A DNA stretch of 64,000 bases from a virus (taxonomy: Duplodnaviria > Caudoviricetes). Positions within the stretch are counted from its first letter, which is position 1. Each line of letters opens with the position of its first letter. Under the pieces are notes generated by a model. It was not told the DNA's origin. It was given only the letters and a program-made list of their open reading frames with translations, and searched no databases. Both the position numbers and the translations under genes were made by a program. The stretch is taken from positions 1-64,000 of the IMG/VR virus record IMGVR_UViG_3300027772_001865; one strand, given 5' to 3'. Shown here in pieces: positions 32,927 to 52,409 of this stretch.

Positions 32927-33839
32927 TGTAGCAGACCTAGACTGCATTTACTTGACTTATGATGAACCGCAGAAAGAAGAATTCTGGGTAAAGATACGCA
33001 ACATGGTACCCTGGGCCAAGCGTGTGGATGGAGTCAAAGGATCAGACGCCGCACACAAGGCTGCCGCTGCCGCTAGCGACACAGAGCGGTTCATATTGAT
33101 CGACGGCGACAACATGCCCGATCCAGAGTTCTTCAATCAAACCATAACATTTGCCACAGCAGATTATGAACAAGCTGTGTTCCGTTGGAGAGCACGTAAT
33201 CACATCAATGGACTCATGTACGGCAACGGCGGCCTGAGTTCCTGGACTAGAACGTTTGTGAACAACATGCGCACACACGAAGCCACAGACGGTCGCACAG
33301 AAACTGAAGTAGAGTTTTGTTTTGATCCGTTATACTGGCCCATGTATGACTGCTACTCTACAACATATCCCAATGGAGATGCGTTCCACGCCTGGCGGGC
33401 GGGCTTTCGTGAAGGTGTAAAGATGTGCCTGAACAAAGGCGCCAAACCCACAGTAGAAGCATTCAAAGAACAAGCACACCGGAAGAACCTAGAGAACTTG
33501 ACCATCTGGCACAACGTGGGCACAGATGTTGAGTACGGCGAATGGGCTGTAGCAGGTGCACGACAAGGCACCTACATGACCATGCTCACAAACTGGGATC
33601 ATCGTCAAGTACAATGGTTTGATGCTCTAGAAGAATTATGGGCCACAGTCAAAGACAGTCAGCCAAGACTGATCAGTAATCAACTTGGCGTTGATCTAGG
33701 TACGCAGTTGGATCTACCTATGGCCATACTAGAGCAAGAACAAAGCGCATTTTTTAAACGTCACTATCGTAGCAATTGGCACAACCAAGGTGCCATGGTC
33801 AGGGAAATTGATGTGATACGCCGTCAAGAAGGTTGGTAA
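32907..33839 (+). CDS. GT-A fold glycosyltransferase-like protein
   Basis: DCIYLTYDEP...VDGVKGSDAAHKAAA...RFILIDGDN (DxD), NHINGLMYGNGG, and AWRAGFREGVKM. Confidence 0.6.
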   Translation: MALNQIDVADLDCIYLTYDEPQKEEFWVKIRNMVPWAKRVDGVKGSDAAHKAAAAASDTERFILIDGDNMPDPEFFNQTITFATADYEQAVFRWRARNHINGLMYGNGGLSSWTRTFVNNMRTHEATDGRTETEVEFCFDPLYWPMYDCYSTTYPNGDAFHAWRAGFREGVKMCLNKGAKPTVEAFKEQAHRKNLENLTIWHNVGTDVEYGEWAVAGARQGTYMTMLTNWDHRQVQWFDALEELWATVKDSQPRLISNQLGVDLGTQLDLPMAILEQEQSAFFKRHYRSNWHNQGAMVREIDVIRRQEGW

Positions 33840-35224
33840 TGAGCAAAGGTGATCAAAGCCGATTTATGACATCAGCGGAGCAAATGAAGCAGGATCTTGG
33901 TCCTGCACTGTGCTTGGCAAAATGGAAACAGGTTAGTTTTCACTTGCCTACAGGACTGAACAATAGCTGTTATCACCCGCCCTTGCATCAGATCACCGCA
34001 GATGATCTATCTCGTCCTGGTGGCCTACACAATACTGCACATAAAAAACAACAACGTTTGATGATGTTGCAAGGCAAAAAGCCCACAGAGTGTCAGTATT
34101 GCTGGAACATGGAAAACCTGGACAAGCTGAGTGATCGGCATTATAGATCAGGAGAACCCTGGGCAGCCGTGGACCTTGAACGCATAAAGAACTCCTCGGG
34201 ACAGGAAGATGATGTTGTGCCTAGTTATGTGGAGGTGAATTTTAATCATGCTTGTAATCTAAAGTGTAGTTATTGTAGTCCACAATTTAGCTCAAGTTGG
34301 GGTGATGAAATAGAACGCCTAGGTGCTTATCCCACATCAAAACCACACAATGCACCCGAACACTTTGTAGGAAACCGCAAACCTATTCCTGCTAGAGAAA
34401 CTAATCCATATGTTGACGCATTCTGGGAATGGTGGCCTACTTTGTACCCACAGTTGGTACACTTTCGAATGACAGGCGGTGAGCCATTGATGGATCGAAA
34501 CACCTATAGAGTTTTTGATTATGTTCTAGAACACGACAACCCTCAACTGCATTTAAATGTAACTTCAAACTTTTCAGTAGAGGACGCATTGTTTGAAAAA
34601 TACATGGACTACGCAAAGAAATTATGCACACCACGCATTGAACACTTCATGCAGTATGTTAGTCTAGATTCTGGAGTTCCATTGCAAGCTGAGTATCTAA
34701 GGCATGGATTAGACTATGCACGAATGGCTCGCAATGTTGAAAGATTTTTGCATGAAATACCACATCGTAATAGCTTGACATTTATCATCACCATGAACAA
34801 TCTCACCGTGACTGGATTACCAGCTTTACTGGAATGGATACTAGAATTACGTAAAAAGCATTCAACTACATATCAACGTGTGTGGTTTGATACTCCTGTG
34901 CTACGCGAACCGGCTTGGCAGAGTTTACAACTTTTGCCCGAAAGCTATGCTGTACAACTAGAACGAGCAAGAGACTTCATGCTGGCCAACATGGTCACAG
35001 AGTCTGATCCTTTACACGGATTCAAAGACTATGAAGTACAACGACTAGAGCGAGACATTGCTTGGATGCGTGAAGGACAGCTAAAAGATAACACAGTGGC
35101 CAAGGCAGATTTTTACAGATTTTTTAACGAACACGATCAACGTCGTGGCACAGACTTTTTAATTGCTTTCCCGGTCATGAGATCCTGGTGGGCAGAATGT
35201 GAGTATCATGCTAGGAACACATAA
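33839..35224 (+). CDS. Radical SAM protein 1, N-terminal twitch type
   Basis: N-terminal CLAKW...SCYHP...CQYCW, CNLKCSYC (CxxxCxxC), and TGGEP. The ATG at 33839 is TAATG-coupled (the track uses TTG 33833). Confidence 0.9.
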   Translation: MSKGDQSRFMTSAEQMKQDLGPALCLAKWKQVSFHLPTGLNNSCYHPPLHQITADDLSRPGGLHNTAHKKQQRLMMLQGKKPTECQYCWNMENLDKLSDRHYRSGEPWAAVDLERIKNSSGQEDDVVPSYVEVNFNHACNLKCSYCSPQFSSSWGDEIERLGAYPTSKPHNAPEHFVGNRKPIPARETNPYVDAFWEWWPTLYPQLVHFRMTGGEPLMDRNTYRVFDYVLEHDNPQLHLNVTSNFSVEDALFEKYMDYAKKLCTPRIEHFMQYVSLDSGVPLQAEYLRHGLDYARMARNVERFLHEIPHRNSLTFIITMNNLTVTGLPALLEWILELRKKHSTTYQRVWFDTPVLREPAWQSLQLLPESYAVQLERARDFMLANMVTESDPLHGFKDYEVQRLERDIAWMREGQLKDNTVAKADFYRFFNEHDQRRGTDFLIAFPVMRSWWAECEYHARNT

Positions 35225-36332
35225 GATTGTTGTTGACGAATGGTCAGAAGTGTGGGACTTGCTCAAGCCCTATGCAGATGAATCGTTTTGGCAACTGCCT
35301 GATTTAAATCCTGAAAACATCTACATTGTTGGCCGGCTACTTTTAAAAGACAACTGGACAGCAATAACCACCTGGGCCACAGAACATCCTGGACGCATTG
35401 TGTTTTGCAATCCAGCAGAAGGCAGCGAAACAGTGTTGCTACAACTACGGCGGTTGCGCATTGCAGACTATGTGCGTGATGGTCGCATACTGTTAATGAC
35501 ATCCGGAGACCTGGAACCAGGGTGGAATCATTTCAGTACGGATTGTTACTTTTCAAACATTGTGGAATACCAGGAAAACAGAGCGGCGCAGATACAAGCG
35601 TTATGGGAGTACTCAGATCAACGACCCTATAATTTTTTGTTTTTAAATGGGCGTTTACGCCCGCATCGTAAATGTTTAATTGATGGTCTTCGTCAGCACA
35701 AACTGTTGAATCATGCACTGTGGTCTAATCTAGGTAGCACAGTAGAAATGGAATTTACATCCAAGCTCGAGCCAGACAAACAGGAGCCCATAAGATTACT
35801 GCCGCCCGAGTATGAAATAGAACGTGCTGTGACACAATTAACTACTATGAGTACCACGGGCTTTGTCAAGCATGAACTATTTGGCAACACCTGGGGAGAT
35901 GCTGTGGTTAATCCACGGTGTTATACCGACACCTGGTTTAGTCTAGTAACAGAAACCATATTTGATTATCCGCACTCATTTAGAACAGAAAAGATCTACA
36001 AACCTATTTTAATGGCACATCCATTTGTGGTTGCTGCCAATTATGGTTATCTTCGAGACTTACGCAATGCTGGCTTTCAAACATTTGACAGTATCATAGA
36101 TGAATCGTACGACCAAATTGATTGCCCGCATGCCAGGATCAAGCGTATAATAGAAACAGTACGTTATCTTGTGAAGGGTGACTCTGAATATTTCTGGGAG
36201 GTCAGCCGCGACATCTGTAAATACAATCAGCAACATCTTGTGGAGTACAACCAGCAACAACGTGCTCTGCTCCCACAACAGTTAGAGCAATTTTTAAATG
36301 AACGATCTAGAATTCCGTCAACAACATCTTGA
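35199..36332 (+). CDS. GT10-like (TEK motif) glycosyltransferase candidate A
   Basis: FLFLNGRLRPHR...FSLVTETI...RTEKIYKPILMAHPFVV...LRDLRNAGFQTFDSIIDESYD resembles the GT10 (F)EN...(Y)xTEK donor-binding motif. Confidence 0.5.
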   Translation: MSIMLGTHKIVVDEWSEVWDLLKPYADESFWQLPDLNPENIYIVGRLLLKDNWTAITTWATEHPGRIVFCNPAEGSETVLLQLRRLRIADYVRDGRILLMTSGDLEPGWNHFSTDCYFSNIVEYQENRAAQIQALWEYSDQRPYNFLFLNGRLRPHRKCLIDGLRQHKLLNHALWSNLGSTVEMEFTSKLEPDKQEPIRLLPPEYEIERAVTQLTTMSTTGFVKHELFGNTWGDAVVNPRCYTDTWFSLVTETIFDYPHSFRTEKIYKPILMAHPFVVAANYGYLRDLRNAGFQTFDSIIDESYDQIDCPHARIKRIIETVRYLVKGDSEYFWEVSRDICKYNQQHLVEYNQQQRALLPQQLEQFLNERSRIPSTTS

Positions 36333-37635
36333 TACCAAGTCAGCTAGCTTTTGTGCCGCCAAGTGGTACAATGCTACCATATGGCTGGGATCGGGACAAA
36401 CCACAAGTTGTCACCATCCTCCAGCACATCATGTGACTGAAAAAGAAGTAATCATTAATCCTGCTGCCTTGCACAATACTCGACAAAAACGTGATGATCG
36501 TGCAAAAATGCTAGCAGGCGAACGTCCAGCAGGCTGTGAGTACTGCTGGAAGATTGAAGACATGGGCCGCAACGCCATTAGCGACCGTGTGTACAAATCA
36601 CGAATATATCCTATAGAAGCATTAAATGAAGCATTTACCACACCTGTACATGAAGATGTCAACCTACGCACCTTGGAAATTGCTTTTGATCGCACTTGCC
36701 AGCTTGCTTGCAGTTATTGTAATCCTGCATTTTCAAGCACCTGGGTCAATGATATCAAGCGACATGGACCTTATATCAAGCTGGAGTCAGATGGTCGCAA
36801 CCACTTTACTCATGAGCATAATAGTGCTCAACTTTATAAATTCGGTGAGGATAATCCTTACGTCAACGCCTTCTTTGAATGGTGGGAAAAAGACCTCCAT
36901 AGAACCTTACAAGAACTAAGAATCACAGGCGGAGAGCCGCTAATGAGTGGTTACACCTGGAAGTTGATTGACTGGTTTAAACTGAATCAAGGCAAGTCAA
37001 GCACAAAACTAGCCATTAACTCAAATCTTAGTTTTGAAACTGAAAAACTGCAAGAGTTCATTGAAGCTATTCGGCCACTGCCGCATGTGGAACTGTACAC
37101 CAGTATGGAAGCCACGGGTGTATCAGCAGAGTATATACGTGATGGTCTGAACTATGCACAATGGCTCTCAAATGTCGACTTGTTGTTGCAGAGTAACACA
37201 GTAAAAGCAGTGCATGTGATGTGTACAATCAATGCATTATGCTTGCCAACACTGCCTGCACTGTTAGATCAATTGCTGGAAATAAAACGCACACACGGTC
37301 GTGACCGTGTGAACTTTACGTTAAATATCTTACGCTTTCCCAGTTTTCAATCTGCACTTGTGATGCCAGTTAAACTGCGGGACCAATTCCGTGTGACACT
37401 AGAAACTTGGCTTGCTGTCAATCAAACCAATCCCTTGTTGCACGAACACGAAATAAATCATACACAACGCTTGATTGATTATTTAGACATAGTTAAAACT
37501 CCGCATTCAGACACATTTGAAATGCCTAAGCTACACAATGATTTCAAACAGTTTTATTCGCAATACGACCAACGCAGAAACAAAAGGTTTGTCGATGTAT
37601 TTCCCAACTTAAAAGAATGGTTTAACTTATTATGA
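36298..37635 (+). CDS. Radical SAM protein 2, N-terminal twitch type
   Basis: FCAAKW...SCHHP...CEYCW, CQLACSYC, and TGGEP. Confidence 0.9.
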   Translation: MNDLEFRQQHLDTKSASFCAAKWYNATIWLGSGQTTSCHHPPAHHVTEKEVIINPAALHNTRQKRDDRAKMLAGERPAGCEYCWKIEDMGRNAISDRVYKSRIYPIEALNEAFTTPVHEDVNLRTLEIAFDRTCQLACSYCNPAFSSTWVNDIKRHGPYIKLESDGRNHFTHEHNSAQLYKFGEDNPYVNAFFEWWEKDLHRTLQELRITGGEPLMSGYTWKLIDWFKLNQGKSSTKLAINSNLSFETEKLQEFIEAIRPLPHVELYTSMEATGVSAEYIRDGLNYAQWLSNVDLLLQSNTVKAVHVMCTINALCLPTLPALLDQLLEIKRTHGRDRVNFTLNILRFPSFQSALVMPVKLRDQFRVTLETWLAVNQTNPLLHEHEINHTQRLIDYLDIVKTPHSDTFEMPKLHNDFKQFYSQYDQRRNKRFVDVFPNLKEWFNLL

Positions 37636-39338
37636 TGAACGTTGACGCCAAGCTCGCAGAACTGCGTGGCATGCACACTGTACTGGAAGTGGTAGATTTG
37701 TCTACTTGGTCCAGTGATTATGAATCAAGTTTAGCCGAGCTAACGCAACGTTGCCGCGAGTTATATCAAGACACTTATCAGGATGACCAACGTATTGTGT
37801 TTGTACACACCAAAGATTACTATGTAAAGAACAATGATCAGGCAGGATTAATTACAAAAAATCTTCAATTGATTTTGAACAATATTGATATCAGCAACTA
37901 TTTTGTGGTAGTACTCAGTACCACTGCTACAGAAGACGCTGCCGCTGTAGCCCAACAACTGAGTTCAGATCCTGTGCCAATCACATGGTATTCAATTGCT
38001 GGAGAATTTGAGAGAATTGATTTAGAAAAGCATCCGCACAGTATCAAAGAAACATATCAATACGGCAGCGCAAATCCACTCAAGATCAGTTTAGATGAAT
38101 TGTCAGACAGAGAAAAATATTTGTTGACACAATCTAAAACGTTCTGCATGTATCCCTGGATTCATTTACATGCCTGGCCAACTGGACAAGCATTTCCCTG
38201 TTGTCATGCCAAAGCAGGAGCAGGACAAGTAGGCAATTGCCGCACTCACACCATGAAACAGATATGGAACAGTGATCAACTGCGCAAATTACGCACAGAC
38301 ATGCTGAGTGAAACACCCAATGCGGCCTGCGGGCGATGTTACGAACAAGAAAACTCTGGATTTTTCTCAGGCCGCCAGTCAGCAAACAAACATCACGGAC
38401 ATCATATAGATCGGGTCAACAAAACTCATGAAGATGGACATTTTGATCAGTTTGAATTAACTTATTGGGATGTTCGCTTTAGTAACCTGTGCAATTTAAA
38501 ATGCCGTAGTTGCGGACATGTCTTTAGCTCACAGTGGTATCAAGATCAAGCCAAGCTAACACTTGATCAATCCTGGAAAGAAAAGAACTCGGTATTAAAC
38601 TATGCTGGCCGTACAGAAACAGACATGTGGGAACAACTAGAACCACACCTGGACTATGTAGAGCAGATCTATTTTGCTGGGGGTGAACCTTTGTTAATGG
38701 AAGAACACTATCGTATTCTAGACGAATTAGTAAAGCGCAAGAAATTTGATGTAAGATTGACATATAACACAAACTTTACACACACTGACTTAAAGGGCAA
38801 AAGTGTATTTGAATATTGGAAACAGTTTAACTCAGTAGCAGTTGGAGCAAGTCTAGACGATTCAGGCACACGTGGCGAATACATGCGCAAAGGCACCGAC
38901 TGGGCAGTGGTGGAACAAAATCGTAGAGACATGTTGCGCATCTGTCCTGAGGTGGACTTTTACATTAGCCCTACACTTAGCATTATGAATGCCATGCACT
39001 TGACTGACTTCCATAGAGACTGGGTGGAAAAAGGCCTGTTAAAACCGCAGGATCTAAATGTAAACATCTTGCAGGATCCTGTTGAATATAGAATAGACAT
39101 TGCTACTCCTGAATACAAGCAACAGATCAAACAAAAGTTTGAACAACATCTTGAATGGTTGCGTCCGCAAGATCCCTTGCAAAGAGCCACAGTGGGATTT
39201 GAGTCAGCAATCAACTACCTGATGAGCAAAGATAATTCATCACTGATTCCTGCATTCTGGAGTAAGACTGAGGCATTAGATGACGTACGACAAGAAAACA
39301 TCCTAGACATTATTCCAGAATTAAAGGCATTAAAATGA
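37632..39338 (+). CDS. Radical SAM protein 3, N-terminal twitch type with an extra ~160-aa N-terminal domain
   Basis: FCMYPW...PCCH...GNC...IWNS...CGRCY, CNLKCRSC, and AGGEP. Confidence 0.9.
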   Translation: MMNVDAKLAELRGMHTVLEVVDLSTWSSDYESSLAELTQRCRELYQDTYQDDQRIVFVHTKDYYVKNNDQAGLITKNLQLILNNIDISNYFVVVLSTTATEDAAAVAQQLSSDPVPITWYSIAGEFERIDLEKHPHSIKETYQYGSANPLKISLDELSDREKYLLTQSKTFCMYPWIHLHAWPTGQAFPCCHAKAGAGQVGNCRTHTMKQIWNSDQLRKLRTDMLSETPNAACGRCYEQENSGFFSGRQSANKHHGHHIDRVNKTHEDGHFDQFELTYWDVRFSNLCNLKCRSCGHVFSSQWYQDQAKLTLDQSWKEKNSVLNYAGRTETDMWEQLEPHLDYVEQIYFAGGEPLLMEEHYRILDELVKRKKFDVRLTYNTNFTHTDLKGKSVFEYWKQFNSVAVGASLDDSGTRGEYMRKGTDWAVVEQNRRDMLRICPEVDFYISPTLSIMNAMHLTDFHRDWVEKGLLKPQDLNVNILQDPVEYRIDIATPEYKQQIKQKFEQHLEWLRPQDPLQRATVGFESAINYLMSKDNSSLIPAFWSKTEALDDVRQENILDIIPELKALK

Positions 39339-40552
39339 ATATCCCTCACGATAAATTCTGCGTACTACCTTGGATCAGCTTAGAAGCCAGCCCCATTGGT
39401 ACAGTACGTCCCTGTTGTTTGGCTGATGATGAAATTGTCGACGATGCAGGCAACAAGTTTGAGCTACTCACAGCCAACTTCTCTGAAATTCAAAATTCAT
39501 CTCATATGCGTAGTTTGCGACAGCAGTTCCTTGATGGTGAAAAGCCGCAGACATGTCGTAAATGTTTCAACGAAGAACGTTCAGGTAGAACCAGCAAACG
39601 CATGCACACACTCAACAGGCTCAAACACATGTTGCCTGATCAAGAATGGACAACAGATGCCAAACCCTTGATGTTCTTAGATCTCAAGCTGGGCAACATT
39701 TGTAATTTGAAATGCCGCATATGCGGATCATGGAGCAGTTCACAGTTTGCCACAGAAGAACTAAATCAAATGCACTCCAATGAGGAGAAAAAAGCCAGCT
39801 TGCCTTATCAGATGTTACGTGCAGGAGCCTGGCCTCGGGAAAATCAGAAGTTCTGGCAACAAATTGAATCAGTGTTGACTGATATTCGTTACATTGAATT
39901 CACAGGCGGTGAACCCTTTATGATTCAAGAGCACTTTGATATGTTGCAAGGACTTGTAGACCGTGGCATTGCGCACAATGTAGAAATACACTACAACACA
40001 AATGGCACACACTGGCCCGAGAACGCACCTGAAATTTGGCGTCATTTTAAACTGGTTGAGATTGCATTGTCAATAGATGATGTAGGCGAACGTTTTGAAT
40101 ACCAACGCAGTAATGCTGTATGGACCGAGGTTGAACAAAACGTGAGCCGTTTTGCAGAACTAAAGGCACAAAGCACCAATATTGAATTACAATGCTGTAC
40201 CACAGTAAATGTATTCAATGTGCGTTACTTAGAACAGGTTGCTGCCTGGATTGATCAGCAGGCATTTGATTTTGTGTACTGGAATATGATGCACGACGCC
40301 TGGTACTTCTCTATTGCAACCTTGCCCGATGAAGCCAAAGCAGGAATTACTGCACACTTACAATCTGCACAGTTTCCCGAACGTTTTCGCGGTGAAATTA
40401 ACAACATCATTGAGTTTATGAATCGTGGCGCTTCGACAGACGGCAACATCTTGAAGATGCGTGTGCGTGATCTAGATCGAAAACGTTCACAAGACATGGC
40501 GCAGATACAACCAGAATTTGCCGAGTTAATTAACTATAAGTATGCCACTTAA
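39335..40552 (+). CDS. Radical SAM protein 4, N-terminal twitch type
   Basis: FCVLPW...GTVRPCCLA...CRKCF, CNLKCRIC, and TGGEP. Confidence 0.9.
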   Translation: MNIPHDKFCVLPWISLEASPIGTVRPCCLADDEIVDDAGNKFELLTANFSEIQNSSHMRSLRQQFLDGEKPQTCRKCFNEERSGRTSKRMHTLNRLKHMLPDQEWTTDAKPLMFLDLKLGNICNLKCRICGSWSSSQFATEELNQMHSNEEKKASLPYQMLRAGAWPRENQKFWQQIESVLTDIRYIEFTGGEPFMIQEHFDMLQGLVDRGIAHNVEIHYNTNGTHWPENAPEIWRHFKLVEIALSIDDVGERFEYQRSNAVWTEVEQNVSRFAELKAQSTNIELQCCTTVNVFNVRYLEQVAAWIDQQAFDFVYWNMMHDAWYFSIATLPDEAKAGITAHLQSAQFPERFRGEINNIIEFMNRGASTDGNILKMRVRDLDRKRSQDMAQIQPEFAELINYKYAT

Positions 40553-42724: not shown

Positions 42725-45159
42725 GTAATTCTTTAAACAAACCCTTGTGTGTTTTGCCATTTATGCATGGTCTAATGGACACAACGGACCAACTGTTACC
42801 ATGTTGTGCGTACAATCATCGGCACGGTAAACAATATCATGTACATGAGTTTGATACCTGGTGGGAATCAGGATTAACGGAAATTAGACAAGACATGCTT
42901 GCTGGCCGAAAACACGAAGGCTGCAATCGTTGTTGGAAAGAAGAAGAACAAGGAATATTAAGTTACCGCCAACGACAGAATGAATATTGGGCTCAATATC
43001 AAAATATCCAACAGCCGCTGCCCAAACCTGTGTTTTTAATGATGGGCATTGGCAACTATTGCAATATTAAATGTATCATGTGTTCTCCACAAAAAAGCAG
43101 CTTATGGGCAGAGGAGTACGAAAAGAATCAAAAAGCATTCAAAAAAATTAATATACACTTTACTCACTACAATAACGGCTCTTGGAGTGAACCAGAAAAA
43201 ATTGAACGTCTATTAGATCATGTGGCCACTGATGTGGAAATGTTGCACTTCAGCGGCGGCGAGCCACTTATTACCCCAGAATACAAACAAGTGTTACGTT
43301 CAGTTATCAATCCTAGCAACGTTGAACTACACATCAATACCAATCTCACCATGCTCAGTGAAGACTGGATAACATTGCTGAAACAGTTTAAAACAACAAT
43401 CAATGTGAGTCTTGAAGGTGTGGGCGAGAAAAATGACTATGTCAGAGAAGGATCTGACTGGTCTGTATTAGTACGCAACATAAACCGTCTTAAAGCGGCA
43501 GGAATATATGTTGCTGTATGTCATGCATTCAGTAGAACCAGTTTATTGGCCTTGCCAGAACTGTTGGAGTTTTGTACAGATAACAATTTACAAATCAGTT
43601 TCACTCAGTTGACATATCCGCCGTATTTGCAGGTGGCTGGTGCACCAGATTCAGAAAAACAACAATTTTTAACAGCATTAAACTGTATGAAATACCCAAA
43701 CCACACGGCACCAGAAATTTTTGTTTACGAAGACATTGTAAAAACAACCAAGTATGATGTAGAAAAAGATATTGCATTTTGGAAATTTATAGATACCATG
43801 GACCAATTACACAATAAAAACTATCAAGAAATCTTCAAGGTCACTCCACAATCTGTGACTGATAGAAAGGTCGATACATTTTGCATGGCACCTTGGACAC
43901 ACACCTATCTGAGTCCACAAACTGAACGAAGAATATGCTGTGCGTCAAGGGAACCTGCTCAGAGTTTTAAACAATACATTGATACCGCAGCCGGCACAGG
44001 CAAATACATGCCTATCACACTGGATGAACACTGGAATGGAGATCACATGCGCAGTGTACGTCGTCGTATGTTGGCTGGGGAAACCTTGCCCGAGTGTGAA
44101 GTATGCAATAACAAACTGTTGAATACTGATGTGTACAGAAGTTATTTTACGCATCTGTTCAAACACAAAATTGATGAAGTGTACAGTTCAACTGACGAAA
44201 CTGGTTATACCACAATGCAGCCAGTGAGTTGGGACTATCGTTTCAGTAATCTCTGCAACTTTAAATGCAGAACCTGCGGAGACATGTTATCAAGTGCCTG
44301 GGAAACAGAACAAAAGCAACATGACATGACGGATTGGGCCAATCCCAAGAACAACTGGATGCGTCCTGAAATAAGAAACGAAATTTCAGCATTTCAAGAT
44401 CAGCAAATTGAACAAGAGTTTAGTGACGCTGTGGAACAACACCGTGTGGAAGAAATATACTGGGTAGGCGGTGAGCCCTTGATGTTTGAACAGCATTGGC
44501 GGTATATGAAACGCATAGTAGATCTGAGAGACGGCCCACGTGTGTATGCACGATATAACACCAATCTCAGCAGGGTAGATTACAAAGGAGTGAATCTTTA
44601 TCGAGACATTCTTGCTCATATTCGCGACTGGCAGATTTGTGCCAGCCTAGATGGTACAGGCACCACAGGAGAGTACATACGCACAGGATTAAATTATGCA
44701 GAATTCTGCAGAAACTTTGAACAAGGTATTGCTATAAAACGCCACAAGAGACAAATGCGACTAGACTTCACACTCACACTGCCGGGCATGACAGAAATTT
44801 TAGCCATGGAACAGTTGGCTGCATCATACGATGTAGAACTATTGGCCAAACTTATATTCAGCTTCACTCCAGAGATCATTATGAGCCCTTTAGCAATGCC
44901 CAGGACGTTATTAATGAACTGGATCACGGATCTGTTGCCACAATGTCAGACTGAAGTCATGCGTGATATGCTGTTGCAATTGCAGTCTAGACCAACATTT
45001 GAAGAACAGTGGCCAAATATATATCAACAAGAATTAATAAAAGGCAAAACTCGTGTGTTACGATTAGAAAGCATACGTACATCGCCCACTAGCATGGCTA
45101 CAATATTGAGTGAAAGACCCGATGTCAAAGAATGGTGGAACAAAATTGGAACAAATTGA
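42721..45159 (+). CDS. Double radical SAM protein (two complete twitch-rSAM units, domains 6 and 7)
   Basis: Unit 1: LCVLPF...PCCAY...CNRCW, CNIKCIMC, SGGEP. Unit 2 from ~43855: FCMAPW...ICCAS...CEVC, CNFKCRTC, VGGEP. Confidence 0.9.
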   Translation: MSNSLNKPLCVLPFMHGLMDTTDQLLPCCAYNHRHGKQYHVHEFDTWWESGLTEIRQDMLAGRKHEGCNRCWKEEEQGILSYRQRQNEYWAQYQNIQQPLPKPVFLMMGIGNYCNIKCIMCSPQKSSLWAEEYEKNQKAFKKINIHFTHYNNGSWSEPEKIERLLDHVATDVEMLHFSGGEPLITPEYKQVLRSVINPSNVELHINTNLTMLSEDWITLLKQFKTTINVSLEGVGEKNDYVREGSDWSVLVRNINRLKAAGIYVAVCHAFSRTSLLALPELLEFCTDNNLQISFTQLTYPPYLQVAGAPDSEKQQFLTALNCMKYPNHTAPEIFVYEDIVKTTKYDVEKDIAFWKFIDTMDQLHNKNYQEIFKVTPQSVTDRKVDTFCMAPWTHTYLSPQTERRICCASREPAQSFKQYIDTAAGTGKYMPITLDEHWNGDHMRSVRRRMLAGETLPECEVCNNKLLNTDVYRSYFTHLFKHKIDEVYSSTDETGYTTMQPVSWDYRFSNLCNFKCRTCGDMLSSAWETEQKQHDMTDWANPKNNWMRPEIRNEISAFQDQQIEQEFSDAVEQHRVEEIYWVGGEPLMFEQHWRYMKRIVDLRDGPRVYARYNTNLSRVDYKGVNLYRDILAHIRDWQICASLDGTGTTGEYIRTGLNYAEFCRNFEQGIAIKRHKRQMRLDFTLTLPGMTEILAMEQLAASYDVELLAKLIFSFTPEIIMSPLAMPRTLLMNWITDLLPQCQTEVMRDMLLQLQSRPTFEEQWPNIYQQELIKGKTRVLRLESIRTSPTSMATILSERPDVKEWWNKIGTN

Positions 45160-46216
45160 AATAACTTTAAGAAACACTAACACAGGGGATCTGCTGCCGG
45201 TGTATATAGATGTAGAAGATAACAGCCTAAGTCGTCGTTGGTTAACGGCATTAAATGAATTACTGGAAAAGAATTTCCATTTAGAAAAGAACTACTGTTG
45301 GTTTGGCTGGCATGCAGGACCTAGAACAGCAGAGTACGTATGTGATCAAATCAATCGATCAATTGCGGCCATCAATGCCGCGGACATGGGCTATCAAATT
45401 ACAGATCATTTTGATACCATCAACACCATTACAGCAGGTGCAGTGGGTGACGGCTTGCCAGGCGGCAAACTCATACACAAAAAACTAAATCAATTGCACC
45501 GCTACTTTGAAGACCTACAGGGAGTGTCGGGTGCAATGAGTCCATTTTACACTCGTGCAGATGCCGCCACACGTTGGCATATTCGTCAGTTAAATTTGCT
45601 GTGTCACGAATATGAAAGTCTAGTGCTGAGCATGCGCAAGGCACACTATGCTCCAGAATGGGTGCGTCCCAGTCAGCTCATGTGCTGGTTAAATGCGCCA
45701 CGATTTGAACTAGAACCTGAAGACTATGAACTGTTTGGCATAGAAACAATCAATCGCAAGTTAGGCGGAGTGTATGTGGGTGTGAACAAAGCAGTGGGCA
45801 AACACCACTGGGAAGTGTTTCACGATGAAGGTAGAGACAGTCGCATAGACGAATTAACCACAACGACACTAAGAGCACAAACAGAAGCCGCAGGAGATTT
45901 TGACATAGAGTGGGCACGAGATCCGGGCGCTTACCCTTGGCAGATCAAACAGTTGGCACAGTTTCGGGAGTGGCTGATGATCAATGGATTCGATCCTGAA
46001 AACAAAGCACTCACTATAGGACACCCTCAAGTGGCACAAGTGAACTTGATCAAGACATTTGGTACAGACGATGCTGCCACAATCTGGACCATGTTAAATG
46101 ACTATTTAGATGTGTATAAAATAACAACTAGCCAGGCCGGTGCTATATACAACTATCACTGGAGCGATGCTGACTTTGGTGAACGTCAGATACGGTGTAT
46201 CACAAAAGGACCTTAA
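45110..46216 (+). CDS. Hypothetical protein (~360 aa) inside the island
   Basis: Long ORF overlapping the upstream gene, with no motif I recognise. The start is uncertain (GTG 45110 or a later TTG). Confidence 0.75.
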   Translation: MKDPMSKNGGTKLEQIEITLRNTNTGDLLPVYIDVEDNSLSRRWLTALNELLEKNFHLEKNYCWFGWHAGPRTAEYVCDQINRSIAAINAADMGYQITDHFDTINTITAGAVGDGLPGGKLIHKKLNQLHRYFEDLQGVSGAMSPFYTRADAATRWHIRQLNLLCHEYESLVLSMRKAHYAPEWVRPSQLMCWLNAPRFELEPEDYELFGIETINRKLGGVYVGVNKAVGKHHWEVFHDEGRDSRIDELTTTTLRAQTEAAGDFDIEWARDPGAYPWQIKQLAQFREWLMINGFDPENKALTIGHPQVAQVNLIKTFGTDDAATIWTMLNDYLDVYKITTSQAGAIYNYHWSDADFGERQIRCITKGP

Positions 46217-46217
46217 T

Positions 46218-46319
46218 ATGAACTGGCTCAAAAACTTATACAATAGAATTCGTTTAGAAATTCGATACCGCAAGAAGCTAAAAGAACTGCGCAAACGAGA
46301 TCCATTTATCTACAAATGA
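46218..46319 (+). CDS. 33-aa basic micro-protein MNWLKNLYNRIRLEIRYRKKLKELRKRDPFIYK
   Basis: Own translation. It fills the gap exactly, starts 1 nt after the upstream stop and overlaps the carbamoyltransferase start by ATGA. The C-terminal PFIY recalls small proteins found beside carbamoyltransferases. Confidence 0.7.
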   Translation: MNWLKNLYNRIRLEIRYRKKLKELRKRDPFIYK

Positions 46320-47791
46320 AAATACTAGGAATTTCAGCAGGGTTTCACGATGCTGCCGCTACTGTGATTAACAATGGTTATATTCTTTTTGCCGGACATA
46401 GTGAACGATATTCAAAACAAAAGAACGATGCCAATATACACCCAGATCTACTTAAGGATGCACTTGTGTATGGTGTAGATCATGTTGCGTATTACGAGCG
46501 TCCCTGGCTTAAACAACTGCGACAGTGGTATGCAGGACAGGGCCTGGAGTGGGATAAAGTCACGCTGAATCAAGTGTTACAGCAACAGGTCCCAGCGGCT
46601 ATGTTGTCACATCCTACCACAAGTACACATAATCATCACTTGTGCCATGCGGCAGCAGGATTTCAAACCTCATCCTACGATCGTGCCACAGTGGTGGTAA
46701 TAGATGCAGTAGGCGAGTTTGACACAATAACAATATGGGCAGCAGAATATGATTCAAAAGGCATGGCAAAGTATCGAAAACTTTGGTCACAGCATTATCC
46801 ACATTCAATTGGACTATTCTACTCTGCGGCTACTAGCAGTGTTGGCCTACGCCCACTAGACGAAGAATATATCCTAATGGGCATGGCAGCGTATGGTGAT
46901 GCCACAGCGGCTGTGGGCATGCAAAAATTAGTCAAAGACTCTGACCAAATACGATTCTGTGACAATCTACACACCGGCATTGACAGTAAATATCTGCAGG
47001 ATCTAGAAGAATTTGATATTGCTGCTGGCACACAAGCCATTGCAGAACAACTAATCATGAGTGTGATGCGCAGAGCACGTGACTTCAAATGGTCCAGCAA
47101 TTTGGTGTACATGGGTGGGGTTGCTCTTAACTGTAGCGCCAACAGAAATTTAGGAAAGTTCTTTGATAACATATGGATTATGCCTTGTCCTAGCGACGCT
47201 GGCAGTAGCCTGGGCGCGGCAGCATTGGCTTATGGGAAACAGATACATTGGACCAATGCCTATCTGGGCCATGATATCCCTGGTGATTATCCTGTGGATG
47301 ATATTATCACTGTCCTGCTACGTGATAAAATTGTGGGCGTGGCCAGCGGTCGTGCCGAATTTGGGCCCAGGGCTCTGGGCAATAGATCACTATTGGCAGA
47401 CCCCCGTGGCGCAGACATAAAGGCACGTGTAAATGATATCAAACGACGACAGCAATTCAGACCATTTGCGCCTGTTATTTTAGAAGAACATGCTCATAAC
47501 TATTTTGACATGCCTTGCAGATTCCCCAACAGTAGATATATGCAAGTTGTTGCTCGCTGTATACATCCTCACATATTTCCTGCTATCATTCATTATGACC
47601 ACACTAGTAGGGTACAAACAGTACCACCGGATGGTTCTGGAATAAGACAACTGCTAGAAGCATGGTACCGGGCAACAGGTTGTCCCATGTTGCTCAATAC
47701 TAGTCTAAACATACGAGGCGAACCCATGGTAAATGATCGTGCAGATGCTGAACGCTTTGAAGAGTTATACAATGTAAAGGTATGTTCATAA
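46316..47791 (+). CDS. Carbamoyltransferase (NodU/CmcH/TobZ family)
   Basis: ILGIS..FHDAAA, ERYSK.K, HHLCHA, SIGLFYS, MGMAAYG, GGVALN, DAGSSLGAA, EFGPRALGNRS, RQQFRPFAP, SRVQTV, and LLNTSLN. Confidence 0.93.
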   Translation: MKILGISAGFHDAAATVINNGYILFAGHSERYSKQKNDANIHPDLLKDALVYGVDHVAYYERPWLKQLRQWYAGQGLEWDKVTLNQVLQQQVPAAMLSHPTTSTHNHHLCHAAAGFQTSSYDRATVVVIDAVGEFDTITIWAAEYDSKGMAKYRKLWSQHYPHSIGLFYSAATSSVGLRPLDEEYILMGMAAYGDATAAVGMQKLVKDSDQIRFCDNLHTGIDSKYLQDLEEFDIAAGTQAIAEQLIMSVMRRARDFKWSSNLVYMGGVALNCSANRNLGKFFDNIWIMPCPSDAGSSLGAAALAYGKQIHWTNAYLGHDIPGDYPVDDIITVLLRDKIVGVASGRAEFGPRALGNRSLLADPRGADIKARVNDIKRRQQFRPFAPVILEEHAHNYFDMPCRFPNSRYMQVVARCIHPHIFPAIIHYDHTSRVQTVPPDGSGIRQLLEAWYRATGCPMLLNTSLNIRGEPMVNDRADAERFEELYNVKVCS

Positions 47792-47792
47792 T

Positions 47793-49073
47793 ATGGACAA
47801 TAAAAGAGTTTTCCCAATTAACACCAACACAGGGTGTTTGTTAAAATGGGCATGGTCCACAGTGTTTCTTCGCCAGGGCACAAGTTCCAGTTGTCATAGA
47901 ACAGATCAAGCACCAATACCCCCAGGAGATTTTTCCAGTTTTCATAACTTGCCTAACAAAGTTGCCGCACGTGAATTGATGTTGCAAGGCGGTTGGCCAC
48001 AGGGCGGATGTCAGTATTGTGAAAAGATTGAAGCCGCAGGAGGCATGAGCGATCGGCAGTATCAACTGCATGCCGGACATGACCATGACCGTACTCCAAG
48101 AGAGCTACTTCAAGATCCCACACAAACAGAAGTTGTACCCACCATACTAGAAGTGTATTTTAACAATACCTGCAACATGAGTTGCTTGTACTGTGGTAGT
48201 CATTTTAGTTCAAAGTGGGAAGAAGAAAACAAAAGGTTTGGCATGTACGAGAACCAGCCCAAGACCGTGGCATTTGGCTGGGACACCAAACAACCAGACC
48301 TAGACTATGATAAGATGCTAGCTGATTTCTGGAAATATCTCCACGATAAAGATAGATATCTACACATTAGACAATATCAAATTGCTGGTGGCGAGCCATT
48401 TCATCAAGTGGAACTGGAAGCCAGTATAGACTTTTGGGATAATCATCCCAATCCAGAACTGACATTTAACTTCATTACCAATTTAAAAGTCACTCCCAAG
48501 AAGTTTCAATCCACAATTGACCGACTGGGTCGCATGGTTGATCAAGGCAAGCTCAAACGTGTGCAAATTAGTTCAAGCCTGGATGCCTGGGGACCGCAAC
48601 AGGAGTACGTGCGTTGGGGATTAGATTTGGCAGAGTGGCAGGAAAACTTTGAATATTGCCTGGACAAGCCATTTATTCAACAGTGTATCAATTCAGCCAT
48701 CAATCCATTGACTGTAAAAACCATGCCCGAGTTGATTCAGAAAATGAATGACTGGAATGATCGATGTTCAGACAACAAGCAAATTGCCTACAGCTTTATG
48801 ACTGTGATGGCACCAAATTGGATGGATCCTGCTATCTTTGGCGCAGGCGTGTTTGAACAAGACTTTGAACAAATACTTGCCGCCATGCGAGAAAACACTG
48901 ACATGGAACGCAGTGCCAAACATCACATGGAAGGCATTGGCCGACAAATTGCTGCCGCGCCACGCAACATCGAGTTGATTAACGGATTAAAAGATTATGT
49001 TACTGAACTTGATCGCCGCAGAGGAACCCAATGGCAGGAACTATTTCCCTGGCTTGATCAGGACTGGAAATAA
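47793..49073 (+). CDS. Radical SAM protein (domain 8), N-terminal twitch type
   Basis: GCLLKW...SSCHR...CQYCE, CNMSCLYC, and AGGEP. Confidence 0.9.
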   Translation: MDNKRVFPINTNTGCLLKWAWSTVFLRQGTSSSCHRTDQAPIPPGDFSSFHNLPNKVAARELMLQGGWPQGGCQYCEKIEAAGGMSDRQYQLHAGHDHDRTPRELLQDPTQTEVVPTILEVYFNNTCNMSCLYCGSHFSSKWEEENKRFGMYENQPKTVAFGWDTKQPDLDYDKMLADFWKYLHDKDRYLHIRQYQIAGGEPFHQVELEASIDFWDNHPNPELTFNFITNLKVTPKKFQSTIDRLGRMVDQGKLKRVQISSSLDAWGPQQEYVRWGLDLAEWQENFEYCLDKPFIQQCINSAINPLTVKTMPELIQKMNDWNDRCSDNKQIAYSFMTVMAPNWMDPAIFGAGVFEQDFEQILAAMRENTDMERSAKHHMEGIGRQIAAAPRNIELINGLKDYVTELDRRRGTQWQELFPWLDQDWK

Positions 49074-50341
49074 GGCGCCCACTCGGGCACAACATCTGTC
49101 AGCTTCTTTTTGCTCACAGTGTCTTCAAGTCGAATATGCTCAATGAACTGTGGCAGATAAGCAGGTTCATATGGTGTTGATTCTATCACACTGATCACAC
49201 GATCCACCAACTGGGTATAGTAAGTTTCATATATGGCCGTTGTGTTTGCAAAACGTTCTCGGCCTGCACGTAACCTACTCAGTGCAATTTCACGTAGCTC
49301 AGGAGGAACAGCACCTTGACCCAGGTGATCAACTCTAAACACAGGACTGATGTTGATAAAGCTACCAGCTACATCTTCAGGATTGTGCGGACCAAACCCT
49401 GACTCGTAACACCAGTTGATAAAGTCCATGGCACTGAACACATTTATACCAGTTAACACATAGTTAACAACTGTGCTGATGTATTCATGATCCATCAGTT
49501 CCAGGGCATTAACACTTAGGCTGGCCCATTTGGCACCTCTACGTTGGTACTCAATTACATCACCAATGCCATCAATGCTGACATTGTAGATGACCTGTTT
49601 GAACTTACGAAACTTTTCATCCAGTGCAGATGCACTGCTACTAGCATTTGTCAAAAGTGTAATGAGAATATTTTTGGCTAGATCTTTTTCTATTAGATAG
49701 TCCATTATTTCATGTACTTGGCTTTGCAGTGCAGTTTCACCGCCAGTGAAGTTGATCAATTGTACTTTGTCCAGCACTGAATAAAAGTCTGGATCAGCCA
49801 CATTGAGTACAATTTTTTCTTGTTTCTTCATCACTTGCACTTCAAATGTTTGACGCTTGCTAGATGCACCACCAGCACACATCACACAAGAATAGTTGCA
49901 GTAATTGCTGGGATAATAGTCCAGGGTAATAATGTCATGCACATTGTAGTCATCATTGATGATTTGGTAAACTTCTGACACAATGTCTGACTGCAAAAAC
50001 TGTGCAAGAAATTTATTATTCTGTTGCCTAGGGCTTGACACGCCAGACTTTTCGTTATAACTACAAGATCTGCAGTCATAGATGTCGTGAAACTTGTCTT
50101 GAATAAAATCTTGTCGCATTTGTTTCCATACTGGTGCATTGCGTGTGTCATGTATACTGTCGTTTGTGATGTTCCATTTGTTCATGTCATCGGCCATGAC
50201 AATACTGCAAGGACGCACACTGTTGGGCATGCCTTCTTGAGCAATGGGAATGACATTGTTGGTTTGATAAAAAGCCCCAAAGAATGGATACAAACAAATG
50301 TGCTCTCCTAATTCTTGATATATGTTGTCTAAGTCGTTCAT
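49058..50341 (-). CDS. Radical SAM protein (domain 9), N-terminal twitch type, divergent
   Basis: ICLYPF...VRPCS...CRSCSY, CNYSCVMC, and TGGET. Confidence 0.85.
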   Translation of the reverse strand: MNDLDNIYQELGEHICLYPFFGAFYQTNNVIPIAQEGMPNSVRPCSIVMADDMNKWNITNDSIHDTRNAPVWKQMRQDFIQDKFHDIYDCRSCSYNEKSGVSSPRQQNNKFLAQFLQSDIVSEVYQIINDDYNVHDIITLDYYPSNYCNYSCVMCAGGASSKRQTFEVQVMKKQEKIVLNVADPDFYSVLDKVQLINFTGGETALQSQVHEIMDYLIEKDLAKNILITLLTNASSSASALDEKFRKFKQVIYNVSIDGIGDVIEYQRRGAKWASLSVNALELMDHEYISTVVNYVLTGINVFSAMDFINWCYESGFGPHNPEDVAGSFINISPVFRVDHLGQGAVPPELREIALSRLRAGRERFANTTAIYETYYTQLVDRVISVIESTPYEPAYLPQFIEHIRLEDTVSKKKLTDVVPEWAPYFQS

Positions 50342-51396
50342 TGAATTCTTTCTTTACAAAGAGCAATCAAGCTGGGATTGAAATTGATTGTGCTATCGGG
50401 CACGTCTACATGTTGTTTATAAATTGCCAGTAGATTGTTTACAGTAACAGCATGAAGCTCATGATCAACATTGCCAATTACATCGTGTTCAGTATAATTA
50501 CTCCAGGTGCCCCAATCTTCTAACCTATTGATAACTCCTCGGAATTGATAGCGATAACACAGGTCTACAAAATTTTGCATGTCGTTGTAGTTGTCTTTTT
50601 GCAGGACAAATTTTAATAGTACTTCTGACTTGGTCTGATCACACAATGTTCTCAAGTAATCAAAGTTCTTGATTAGTTGTGTAAATGTTCCGCCAAGCCT
50701 CACTTGCTCGTACACCTCAGCTGACCCAGCATCTATACTGATAAAATACTGTGTGATGTTGTTAATAATAGGAGAATCAGTCAATTGCTTTTCTAACAAC
50801 AGCCCGTTTGTAAACAGTCTTATGGTTTGATTTTTCTTGGGTACAAATCTATGTATCAACGGGCGCATGATGTGGCTGGCCAATGGGTCACCATTTCCGG
50901 ACATTACTATGTGTATCGGGTGCTCAAACTTTTCCAGCATGTCCACCAGGTGGTTGACCTGTGCTAGTTTACGATCAAAATCGCTGCCACTGCTGAGCAT
51001 CACAGCAGATGGTCTGCAACTGGGGCATCGTAGATTACAGCTTTCATCTATGTTGATTGAAAGATAATAGTCCTGTTGATGCACAGATTTATCCAGTACA
51101 CCACACCGGTCTACAGCACAGTGAGTGAACTCTCCAGAATCTATGTCTTGTTGCAATAGTTTAGCAGACGGACTAACCCATACTTGATTTAGGTCAGTAA
51201 AATCAGATATGTTGCCCACTGATATTGGCAACCAAGCTTCGCATGAACACACAAAGCATTCTCCAGTCCAGTCTACCACAAGTTGAGTTGATGGAGCATT
51301 GCAATGATTGTTGATTTTTAATTTTAAATCTTTGTTTCTCAGTATTGATTTATAACTGTGTTGGTTTTGTATGGGAATAGTAAATTGATAACTCAT
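50338..51396 (-). CDS. Radical SAM protein (domain 10), N-terminal twitch type
   Basis: HCNAP...DWTGECFVCSC...GNI...CAVDRC, CNLRCPSC, and SGNGDP. The ATG at 51396 overlaps the upstream stop (the track start is 51411). Confidence 0.85.
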   Translation of the reverse strand: MSYQFTIPIQNQHSYKSILRNKDLKLKINNHCNAPSTQLVVDWTGECFVCSCEAWLPISVGNISDFTDLNQVWVSPSAKLLQQDIDSGEFTHCAVDRCGVLDKSVHQQDYYLSINIDESCNLRCPSCRPSAVMLSSGSDFDRKLAQVNHLVDMLEKFEHPIHIVMSGNGDPLASHIMRPLIHRFVPKKNQTIRLFTNGLLLEKQLTDSPIINNITQYFISIDAGSAEVYEQVRLGGTFTQLIKNFDYLRTLCDQTKSEVLLKFVLQKDNYNDMQNFVDLCYRYQFRGVINRLEDWGTWSNYTEHDVIGNVDHELHAVTVNNLLAIYKQHVDVPDSTINFNPSLIALCKERIQ

Positions 51397-52409
51397 TTGC
51401 ATCCCCCGCACATGTTGTTACATGCTACCAATCTGCCTTCAGCATACGTGGGTTTGTCCCAGGTCTTTTCAACTTGATCAAACCATTCTAAACATTCAGC
51501 CATGGTGTACTTCAATGCGTTGTTGCGTGATATCAGCGGACGCAGTTGTGTGTTGACCACATTGAGATAGTTGGCACTACCGTGCCCGTAAGTTTTAGGG
51601 TTGAATCCAAGATAGCAACACGGATACACTTCTCCAATGCTGTTGATATAAACTGTTTTGGTTTCAATGGCCTCACAAGAAATAGGAGTTTTAATTGGCT
51701 CAGGACATCCTGCAACATCTGCTATTGCATCAGGCCTAGCATACCGTTCATAAATGGTGTCAAAGTTTGTGAGATCTGTTGTGCCCATCACAAACACCAG
51801 TTTCTTATCAGAATCAAATACAGGTCCTACATTGCGTTTGTGATCAATCAATTCAAACCGTTCAAACCCCATGTCTATGCTGAGTTGCTCGGCTTGAGTT
51901 TGCTGATGTCTATTGTGATCAAAGTCAATCATTTTCCAAATGGCATGTCCGCCGGCAGCAATGAAAGTCTGTGCATTTCGAATCACAGTTGAATACATGG
52001 TATTGCGTCTGTATATGCTGTGAGTATCCTCTAATCCGTCTAGACAAAAATATACCACGGCTAGTTTGGCCAGCTGTGTCCAGAACACACGATCCCTGGC
52101 ACCGCCGTTGGTGTTTATAGTTATAAGAGCCTGATTGCCGAGATGTTGTTTGAAATATTCAAGTATTGGTATGGCGTCAAAGTTCATAACAATATCGCCG
52201 AAGTTACCATTTATTGTTATTTTATCAAGATGATTTAAAAACACAGGAGTGAATATCTTCTGTGCTTCTGCCAAGGTCATTGAGTGTTCTTCATAGCCAT
52301 CATTGTGCGGATATCCGCACAAGTTACGAGGACACTTGGGACATGCAGCATTGCACTCGCTGGATATTTCCAGATGTACTTTCCTAATGTCCTCTACTGC
52401 GTACAACAT
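51393..52409 (-). CDS. Radical SAM protein (domain 11), canonical order with C-terminal SPASM/twitch
   Basis: N-terminal HLEISSECNAACPKC. C-terminal ISC...YINSIGEVYPCCY...CNNMCGGC. Confidence 0.9.
   Translation of the reverse strand: MLYAVEDIRKVHLEISSECNAACPKCPRNLCGYPHNDGYEEHSMTLAEAQKIFTPVFLNHLDKITINGNFGDIVMNFDAIPILEYFKQHLGNQALITINTNGGARDRVFWTQLAKLAVVYFCLDGLEDTHSIYRRNTMYSTVIRNAQTFIAAGGHAIWKMIDFDHNRHQQTQAEQLSIDMGFERFELIDHKRNVGPVFDSDKKLVFVMGTTDLTNFDTIYERYARPDAIADVAGCPEPIKTPISCEAIETKTVYINSIGEVYPCCYLGFNPKTYGHGSANYLNVVNTQLRPLISRNNALKYTMAECLEWFDQVEKTWDKPTYAEGRLVACNNMCGGCK

Follow-up and report, generated by a model that had tools for sequence, protein, structure and literature searches.

The array and the phage that carries it

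The first 64 kb of the 81,426-bp IMG/VR virus record IMGVR_UViG_3300027772_001865 (hereafter the window) were analysed with a focus on an array of radical S-adenosylmethionine (SAM) genes at positions 33839–52409. Ten open reading frames (ORFs) of this kind, r1 to r10, are found there, all of them open and together containing eleven CxxxCxxC cores, one per domain; inspection of the ORFs and a motif scan thus agree with an original prediction, made from the sequence alone, of ten intact genes and eleven domains. The SAM motif of these domains is of the GGE(P/T) type, with GNGDP in r9 and none found in r10. The array is part of a cassette that also encodes sugar-handling proteins. From position 32907 on the genes are tightly packed, with stop codons overlapping start codons and ATGA overlaps at the r2/r3, r3/r4, G40542/r5 and r5/r6 junctions (gene names as in Table 1). 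Virion, baseplate and fibre genes lie upstream of the array, on the strand of the cassette.

The completeness of the record was estimated as 23% (CheckV), and genome-level gene and completeness calls bear out the viral origin of the DNA. The baseplate wedge protein is 33–37% identical to its counterparts in jumbo myophages of the Rak2/GAP32/CBB/Atu_ph07 type. We conclude that the window comes from an uncultured freshwater jumbo myophage with a genome of about 330 kb, and that the clade carrying the cassette consists of abundant freshwater jumbo myophages with genomes of about 320–350 kb. Searched as DNA against 50,697 phage records, the array gave no match, and at the protein level phage records gave only distant matches (about 23% identity), in jumbo phages of Vibrio and Ralstonia. 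Freshwater and lake metagenomes of at least 14 studies from 2017–2025 contain near-identical DNA (at least 95% of sampled words), or those of nine independent studies once five runs flagged as possible sources of the window DNA are set aside. Short contigs identical to the window are also present in RNA libraries of four studies and cover parts of r1–r10; this fits expression but does not prove it, since the contigs are assemblies and could stem from carried-over DNA, and uncovered parts carry no information.

Family membership and the N-terminal twitch module

The NCBIfam family NF033640 (N_Twi_rSAM, "twitch domain-containing radical SAM protein") has a cut-off of 170 bits, which was passed by nine domains in eight proteins of the array (r1–r5, r6a, r6b, r7 and r8) with scores of 202–409 bits and end-to-end matches. 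Hidden Markov model E-values of 1e-59 to 1e-124 rule out chance matches. In these domains a four-cysteine module at the N-terminus is followed by the CxxxCxxC core and then by about 130 aa of helical structure at the C-terminus, and all nine share the pattern C-x17-28-C(C)-x38-45-CxxC ahead of the core. The original prediction had pointed to an uncharacterised NCBIfam family with an N-terminal twitch; such a family does exist, and NF033640 fits nine domains. The accompanying claim that ten domains carry an N-terminal twitch stands for these nine but not for r9, whose module has a different cysteine pattern. The NF033640-type family comprises 1462 clusters at 50% identity (E ≤ 1e-30).

The remaining two enzymes, r9 and r10, belong to other radical SAM/SPASM lineages. 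In r9 the Pfam SPASM model matches residues 37–103 (E 3.8e-6) and Radical_SAM residues 123–283. The core motif of r10 is C19xxxC23xxC26, and its eight C-terminal cysteines (235, 245, 264, 265, 306, 330, 334 and 337) are compatible with a SPASM domain; its Pfam SPASM match is below cut-off, as is its best NCBIfam match (W_rSAM_matur, 48.7 bits). The Pfam model PF04055 scored above its own cut-off in five proteins of the array and below it in four, with no match for r10 at E ≤ 0.01. A scatter of the domains over characterised families such as MoaA, QueE and NrdG, named at the outset as the pattern that would speak against a single expanded family, was not seen. Membership in MoaA, QueE, NrdG and viperin was rejected at scores of only 15–50 bits versus cut-offs of 130–650 bits, and scores for NirJ and peptide maturases were likewise far below the cut-offs of those families.

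The N-terminal module of r1–r8 has just four conserved cysteines and lacks the seven-cysteine SPASM pattern; it is therefore a twitch rather than a SPASM domain, matched by the Pfam SPASM model as a related family. When a profile of ten N-terminal modules was searched against all PDB sequences, the C-terminal twitch of BtrN was essentially the sole match, at E 3e-6, with PqqE next at 0.59. In the alignment, the four module cysteines (C7, C25, C68 and C71 in r3 core numbering) coincide with four cysteines located within BtrN residues 163–239, and the twitch ligand pattern C-x~18-C-x~43-CxxC is present at the sequence level. As judged from these residues, the module's four cysteines would suffice to ligate one auxiliary [4Fe-4S] cluster fully. 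BtrN contains a catalytically essential Cys4-ligated auxiliary cluster that was proposed to transfer electrons, and acts on a carbohydrate-like substrate (PMC10337720).

An AlphaFold2 model of r3 residues 166–568, in which the twitch module forms the N-terminus, has a predicted local distance difference test score (pLDDT) of 97.5. Its core aligns with solved radical SAM cores at Z 11–13, with BlsE (13.1), anSME (12.8), SkfB (12.6) and CteB among the closest; 221–226 residues are aligned in these matches, with a root-mean-square deviation (rmsd) of 3.5–4.3 and sequence identity of 12–19%. The module-before-core arrangement is found in no solved structure among the fold matches.

Core, accessory and sugar-handling genes of the cassette

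The paralogs in the window are 21–33% identical to each other (46% for r4/r5), whereas positional orthologs in about 80 related phage contigs are 65–90% identical. Thus, the paralogy predates this phage clade, and the repeated duplication envisaged in the original prediction does not hold up as a recent burst. The subfamilies proposed with it, r1/r2/r7, r4/r5 and r3/r6b, were recovered both by pairwise identity and by a tree. The tree pairs r4 with r5 as sisters (Shimodaira–Hasegawa-like approximate likelihood ratio test 100), unites r1, r2 and r7 in one clade and places r3 and r6b among cellular homologs; r6a and r8 stand alone on long branches, with r9 and r10 as outliers. Since a motif characteristic of r3/r6b was used to retrieve the cellular sequences, which therefore lean towards the r3 type, the apparent restriction of the r1/r2/r7 clade to phages may be a sampling effect.

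The order X32907-r1-G35199-r2-r3-r4-(G40542)-r6b-u45110-carbamoyltransferase-...-amidinotransferase-G53425-G54563-Rep-DegT-SDR is kept in about 80 contigs, the orthologs of the cassette being 65–93% identical. The genes r1, r2, r3, r4 and r6b form a fixed core, while r5, r6a and r7–r10 are accessory additions. Among 47 cassette-spanning loci, five radical SAM genes were counted in 31, six in nine, seven in five and eight in two; with ten, the window has the largest array among those sampled, the loci compared being no longer than 21 kb, a limit that puts long arrays at a disadvantage. An r5 ortholog was seen only in loci L008 and L161 among the relatives compared. The r6a-r6b fusion is common to one close relative, L161 (an 818-aa ORF), and two-unit proteins recur family-wide. 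More than 7800 metagenome homologs of r4 were found, the top ones 75–95% identical, and r4 is present in 80 viral loci. The 165-aa N-terminal domain of r3 has no Pfam, PHROG or PDB sequence match and belongs to no known family; an extension of similar length is present in many family representatives of 524–568 aa.

Five relatives that are 92–100% complete (320–353 kb) contain 6–17 NF033640 genes each, and the copies outside the cassette are of further subtypes, 20–42% identical to those of the window. At loci L199, L202 and L203 of complete relatives such genes directly precede the large terminase gene (two genomes) or stand between Mre11-like and Rad50-like genes; in one relative a copy lies two genes from a SAM synthetase gene of the phage. 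Only one of the five complete relatives encodes a SAM synthetase and flavodoxin was found in none, so that there is no general phage-encoded supply line for the radical SAM enzymes. Records deposited as metagenome-assembled genomes with many copies (Haliscomenobacter and Elusimicrobia bins) may be binned phage contigs and were not used as evidence for the host or for an occurrence of the family in cells. The Haliscomenobacter bin has contigs of 183 kb and 148 kb (L084/L085) with sequences 69–74% identical to r3, which could hint at a Bacteroidota host; in the Elusimicrobia bin more than 15 contigs (L093–L119) each hold a copy of the family.

The sugar-related setting proposed for the array is borne out by its carbamoyltransferase, DegT, short-chain dehydrogenase/reductase (SDR), amidinotransferase and GT-B-like genes. 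Four paralogs, G35199, G40542, G53425 and G54563, belong to one unannotated family. The AlphaFold2 model of G53425 (pLDDT 91.5) has a GT-B glycosyltransferase fold and aligned with the Helicobacter pylori alpha1,3-fucosyltransferase 2nzw at a VIA-align Z of 12.8 (rmsd 4.9, 261 residues aligned). This match is tied within 1 with exostosins (GT47) and T4 beta-glucosyltransferase; the T4 beta- and alpha-glucosyltransferases gave Z 10.6–11.9. The G-family profile had no PDB sequence match, the fold being assigned via the model only, and the Pfam model Glyco_transf_10 did not match the G proteins; the score of the Atlas lead to GT10 was only 0.77–0.78. In a phmmer search against PDB the amidinotransferase homolog matched the inosamine-phosphate amidinotransferase StrB1 (1bwd) at E 1.9e-13 in three stretches, followed by AGAT, HsvA and SxtG. 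The DegT protein also matches other NCBIfam sugar aminotransferases, all below cut-offs. A convincing transmembrane helix was predicted in no cassette protein. The five relatives at least 92% complete were found to have neither an initiating phosphoglycosyl transferase (Bac_transf) nor a sugar nucleotidyltransferase (NTP_transferase).

Table 1. Features of the cassette and of the adjoining region (coordinates in the window; scores for NF033640 in bits)
Feature	Position	Strand	Description
4954-aa ORF	12256–27120	+	Single ORF directly after the baseplate wedge gene; FG-GAP repeats (1.4e-14), weak DUF2460 match
Paralogous pair	31020–32595	+	Two adjacent genes between fibre-like genes and cassette; 26% identity over 217 aa; conserved in relatives
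X32907	32907–33839	+	First gene of conserved cassette; 310 aa, contains ILIDGDN; no known family
r1	33839–35224	+	Core N-twitch radical SAM, SC-H type; 292.7; Cys 25, 44, 85, 88, then C139xxxC143xxC146, GGEP at 213; orthologs 62–92% identical
G35199	35199–36332	+	GT-B glycosyltransferase-like paralog, TEKxxKP motif
r2	36298–37635	+	Core N-twitch radical SAM; 300.7; orthologs 58–90% identical
r3	37632–39338	+	Core N-twitch radical SAM; 407.6 over residues 168–566; extra N-terminal domain at 37632–38126
r4	39335–40552	+	Core N-twitch radical SAM, PCC type; 341.4
G40542	40542–41480	+	GT-B-like paralog; position in cassette varies
r5	41477–42724	+	Accessory N-twitch radical SAM, sister of r4; 331.5
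r6	42721–45159	+	Two complete N-twitch radical SAM units fused in one frame, joined near 43855
r6a	42721–43854	+	Accessory unit; 271.8
r6b	43855–45159	+	Core unit; 272.4; separate gene in most relatives
u45110	45110–46216	+	Conserved cassette gene, no known family; in nearly all related loci
Micro-ORF	46218–46319	+	33 codons, Lys/Arg-rich; stop overlaps carbamoyltransferase start
Carbamoyltransferase	46316–47791	+	NodU/CmcH/TobZ type; Pfam Carbam_trans_N 1.6e-34, Carbam_trans_C 1.4e-47
r7	47793–49073	+	Accessory N-twitch radical SAM, r1/r2 clade; 225.8; in minority of relatives
r8	49058–50341	-	Accessory divergent N-twitch radical SAM; 202; long tree branch
r9	50338–51411	-	Accessory radical SAM, different N-terminal SPASM-like module; only 39
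r10	51393–52409	-	Accessory radical SAM, usual order (core first, Cys-rich C-terminus); 15
Amidinotransferase homolog	52413–53438	-	StrB1-like; 68–95% identical in relatives
G53425	53425–54579	-	GT-B glycosyltransferase-like; the modelled G-family paralog
G54563	54563–55684	-	GT-B-like paralog
Rep	55683–59294	+	1203 aa; about a dozen repeats of ~65 aa; conserved cassette member
DegT	59263–60261	-	DegT/PseC-type sugar aminotransferase; NCBIfam PseC 4.1e-40, below cut-off; PHROG aminotransferase
SDR	60320–61312	-	SDR-type nucleoside diphosphate (NDP)-sugar 4,6-dehydratase/epimerase; NCBIfam dTDP-glucose 4,6-dehydratase 8.1e-33, GalE 1.1e-28, both below cut-offs

Among the other conserved genes, X32907 is present in nearly all related loci, and thousands of metagenome proteins are 80–93% identical to it. 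It is 23% identical to Rep residues 972–1167 and related to the C-terminal part (last ~250 residues) of that protein. For X32907 and u45110 there was no family match in Pfam, NCBIfam or PHROG and no PDB sequence match; Rep has no Pfam or PHROG family and no PDB sequence match. The consensus of the Rep repeats is FDWSWxPNPxDPPYIYVFGNQ...VEYHVPGAT..KYMD, and Rep is found in relatives at 40–78% identity. In relative L001 a short gene is called at the place equivalent to that of the micro-ORF (14457–14609).

Possible function and comparison with known systems

We favour the reading that the array is an enlarged form of a conserved soluble sugar-tailoring cassette, in which sugars on a cytoplasmic acceptor would undergo BtrN-like oxidation at C-H bonds or epimerisation, and consider it an even call. 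Host NDP-sugars would be processed and transferred by the GT-B enzymes. The predicted activity of the radical SAM enzymes is reductive cleavage of SAM to a 5'-deoxyadenosyl radical that abstracts hydrogen from a sugar C-H bond, the substrate being either an NDP-sugar or a sugar residue that the GT-B enzymes have attached beforehand. The second electron would be taken by the Cys4 auxiliary cluster, as proposed for BtrN. The product would be a keto-sugar that could undergo transamination (DegT), amidination (by the StrB1-like enzyme), carbamoylation, or reduction back as an epimer. Each of the old, individually conserved paralogs would handle a different position or residue, and the accessory paralogs (r5, r6a, r7–r10) may add strain-specific edits.

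Because there is no membrane protein and no lipid-carrier step, and because the cassette is placed after baseplate and fibre genes, the acceptor is probably cytoplasmic. The soluble make-up and the position behind the fibre genes favour a glycan on a virion protein over a lipid-linked polymer, and a fibre protein glycan is our leading guess. The 4954-aa ORF probably encodes, from its sequence features, a giant fibre or host-recognition protein, and is a candidate acceptor for the cassette product.

Several observations weigh against this reading. One aminotransferase is present for ten radical SAM enzymes, so that not all of their products can go through oxidation and subsequent amination. The core structures closest to r3 include peptide-modifying enzymes. 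Copies outside the cassette in relatives adjoin terminase, RecA-like, helicase, SAM synthetase and Mre11/Rad50-like genes, far from sugar genes. In two Paenibacillus isolates a family member lies among genes for an acyl carrier protein (ACP), a ketoreductase, two ketosynthases, a GT2 glycosyltransferase, a thioesterase and a phosphopantetheinyl transferase, and other cellular members sit with other radical SAM genes and ACP genes; the occurrence in ACP/ketosynthase clusters means that the family is not sugar-specific by membership. No function has been tested for any NF033640 member, and our literature searches found no paper on NF033640, N-terminal SPASM or N-terminal twitch, those on twitch domain-containing radical SAM proteins returning only general twitch/SPASM papers and those combining radical SAM with jumbo phages or carbamoyltransferases nothing of relevance. 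The scattered copies in relatives and the Paenibacillus context thus point to a chemically broad family, in which membership alone assigns no substrate.

Among cellular contexts, one that favours the sugar reading is a Crocinitomicaceae chromosome on which two family members adjoin genes for a GT4/GT1 fusion, a sulfotransferase, GDSL proteins and a carbamoyltransferase. The ACP/ketosynthase cluster with an N-twitch radical SAM gene was seen in L149, which is Paenibacillus polysaccharolyticus, and in L157; its gene content suggests an acyl or glycolipid substrate for the Paenibacillus branch of the family.

Sugar tailoring as favoured here can be extended to a bolder proposal, which we regard as doubtful but worth stating. 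The N-twitch radical SAM enzymes would be an undescribed class that edits C-H bonds of sugars already in a glycan or glycoprotein, and the core five together with swappable extras would provide fibres or a different cytoplasmic target with a strain-specific glycan, heavily tailored by amino, amidino and carbamoyl groups and by epimerisation. If this is true, a combinatorial glycan code, with 6–17 radical SAM genes per genome, would shape host range or escape from defence.

The first alternative, which we consider unlikely, is protein or peptide maturation, with the radical SAM enzymes modifying side chains or backbone (cross-links, epimerisation, formylglycine-type oxidation) of a protein such as the fibre protein, the 4954-aa giant protein or the Trp/Pro/Tyr-rich Rep, and the sugar genes acting separately. 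It draws on the tie of the core fold with the peptide enzymes anSME, CteB, SkfB and SuiB, on the presence of Rep, a conserved aromatic-rich repeat protein, inside the cassette, on the position of the array after structural genes, and on the fact that the scattered copies in relatives do not adjoin sugar genes. However, no PqqD or recognition-element (RRE) Pfam match (E ≤ 0.01) was found in the ten proteins, although divergent RREs could be missed, and the N-terminus is occupied by the twitch module. The synteny contains no conserved short precursor gene except the 33-codon ORF, which is tied to the carbamoyltransferase. The five core enzymes are interleaved and translationally coupled with GT-B-like genes, and cellular relatives are found in glyco or acyl clusters, not in clusters for ribosomally synthesised and post-translationally modified peptides.

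A second alternative, distinctly unlikely in our view, is synthesis of a soluble aminoglycoside-like or nucleoside-sugar-like compound, e.g. against the host or competitors, in place of the decoration of a macromolecule. The match of the twitch module to BtrN of butirosin biosynthesis, that of the amidinotransferase to StrB1 of streptomycin biosynthesis, the TobZ/NodU-type carbamoyltransferase, the DegT aminotransferase with GT-B enzymes, BlsE as top structural match and the soluble appearance of all cassette proteins are consistent with it. Against it, neither a cyclase of the dehydroquinate-synthase type (2-deoxy-scyllo-inosose) nor an inositol-phosphate synthase is present in the five relatives at least 92% complete, and the cassette contains no exporter or membrane protein. 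The location behind fibre genes and the presence of at least four transferases are better explained by a polymer or glycoconjugate.

Editing of the host envelope, i.e. modification of lipopolysaccharide (LPS), capsule or glycolipid for superinfection exclusion via the lipid-carrier machinery of the host, appears improbable. The sugar genes of the cassette and the Crocinitomicaceae and Paenibacillus contexts, which point to envelope glycan or glycolipid, agree with it, but the cassette lacks a membrane protein, the relatives lack an initiating transferase, and a lytic jumbo phage would have little time for remodelling. Most improbable is DNA hypermodification, in which GT-B enzymes and radical SAM enzymes would build a decorated phage base against restriction: known pathways of thymidine hypermodification include radical SAM enzymes, the G-family model can be superposed on T4 glucosyltransferases within ~1–2 Z of the top match and some scattered copies in relatives lie among DNA-metabolism or packaging genes, but there is no ThyA-type hydroxymethylase and no TGT/DpdA in the five relatives at least 92% complete, the cassette sits with tail genes, and cellular relatives belong to clusters of the envelope or acyl kind.

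Radical SAM enzymes with auxiliary clusters perform some of the hardest C-H chemistry in biology, and the cassette offers defined sets for biochemistry, i.e. five core enzymes with soluble sugar-handling partners. It also poses the question of what kind of molecule could be worth as many as 17 iron-sulfur enzymes to a single virus. Should the product turn out to be a virion glycan or a sugar modification of a new kind, this would bear on host recognition, evasion of immune-type defence and new biocatalysts.

The family itself is catalogued and twitch radical SAM chemistry is known. In the literature we found no description of the reversed architecture as a studied enzyme, of an expansion to 6–17 copies per phage genome or of a fixed place in a phage sugar cassette, nor of a phage glycan island with 5–10 radical SAM enzymes. 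BtrN, the 2-deoxy-scyllo-inosamine dehydrogenase of butirosin biosynthesis (PDB 4m7s/4m7t), has the same C...C...CxxC ligand pattern and spacing as the phage module. Its twitch, however, follows the core while the phage twitch precedes it, the cores are not specifically related, and BtrN, with ~250–270 residues, lacks the C-terminal helical part of the phage enzymes. The best structural matches of the r3 core (Z 12.6–13.1), BlsE (cytosylglucuronate decarboxylase), anSME, CteB and SkfB, cover only residues ~90–370 of the model, and none has an auxiliary module in front.

Known glycan and LPS islands of large phages contain phage-borne glycosyltransferases, a sugar aminotransferase and a dehydratase near structural genes. 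These islands and virion glycosylation clusters thus have the same kinds of genes near structural genes as the cassette described here, which has no membrane or lipid-carrier component and, unlike any such island that we found described, contains 5–10 radical SAM enzymes. NF033640, hitherto catalogued by name without a function, is here represented by nine copies in 18 kb of phage DNA, including a tandem fusion.

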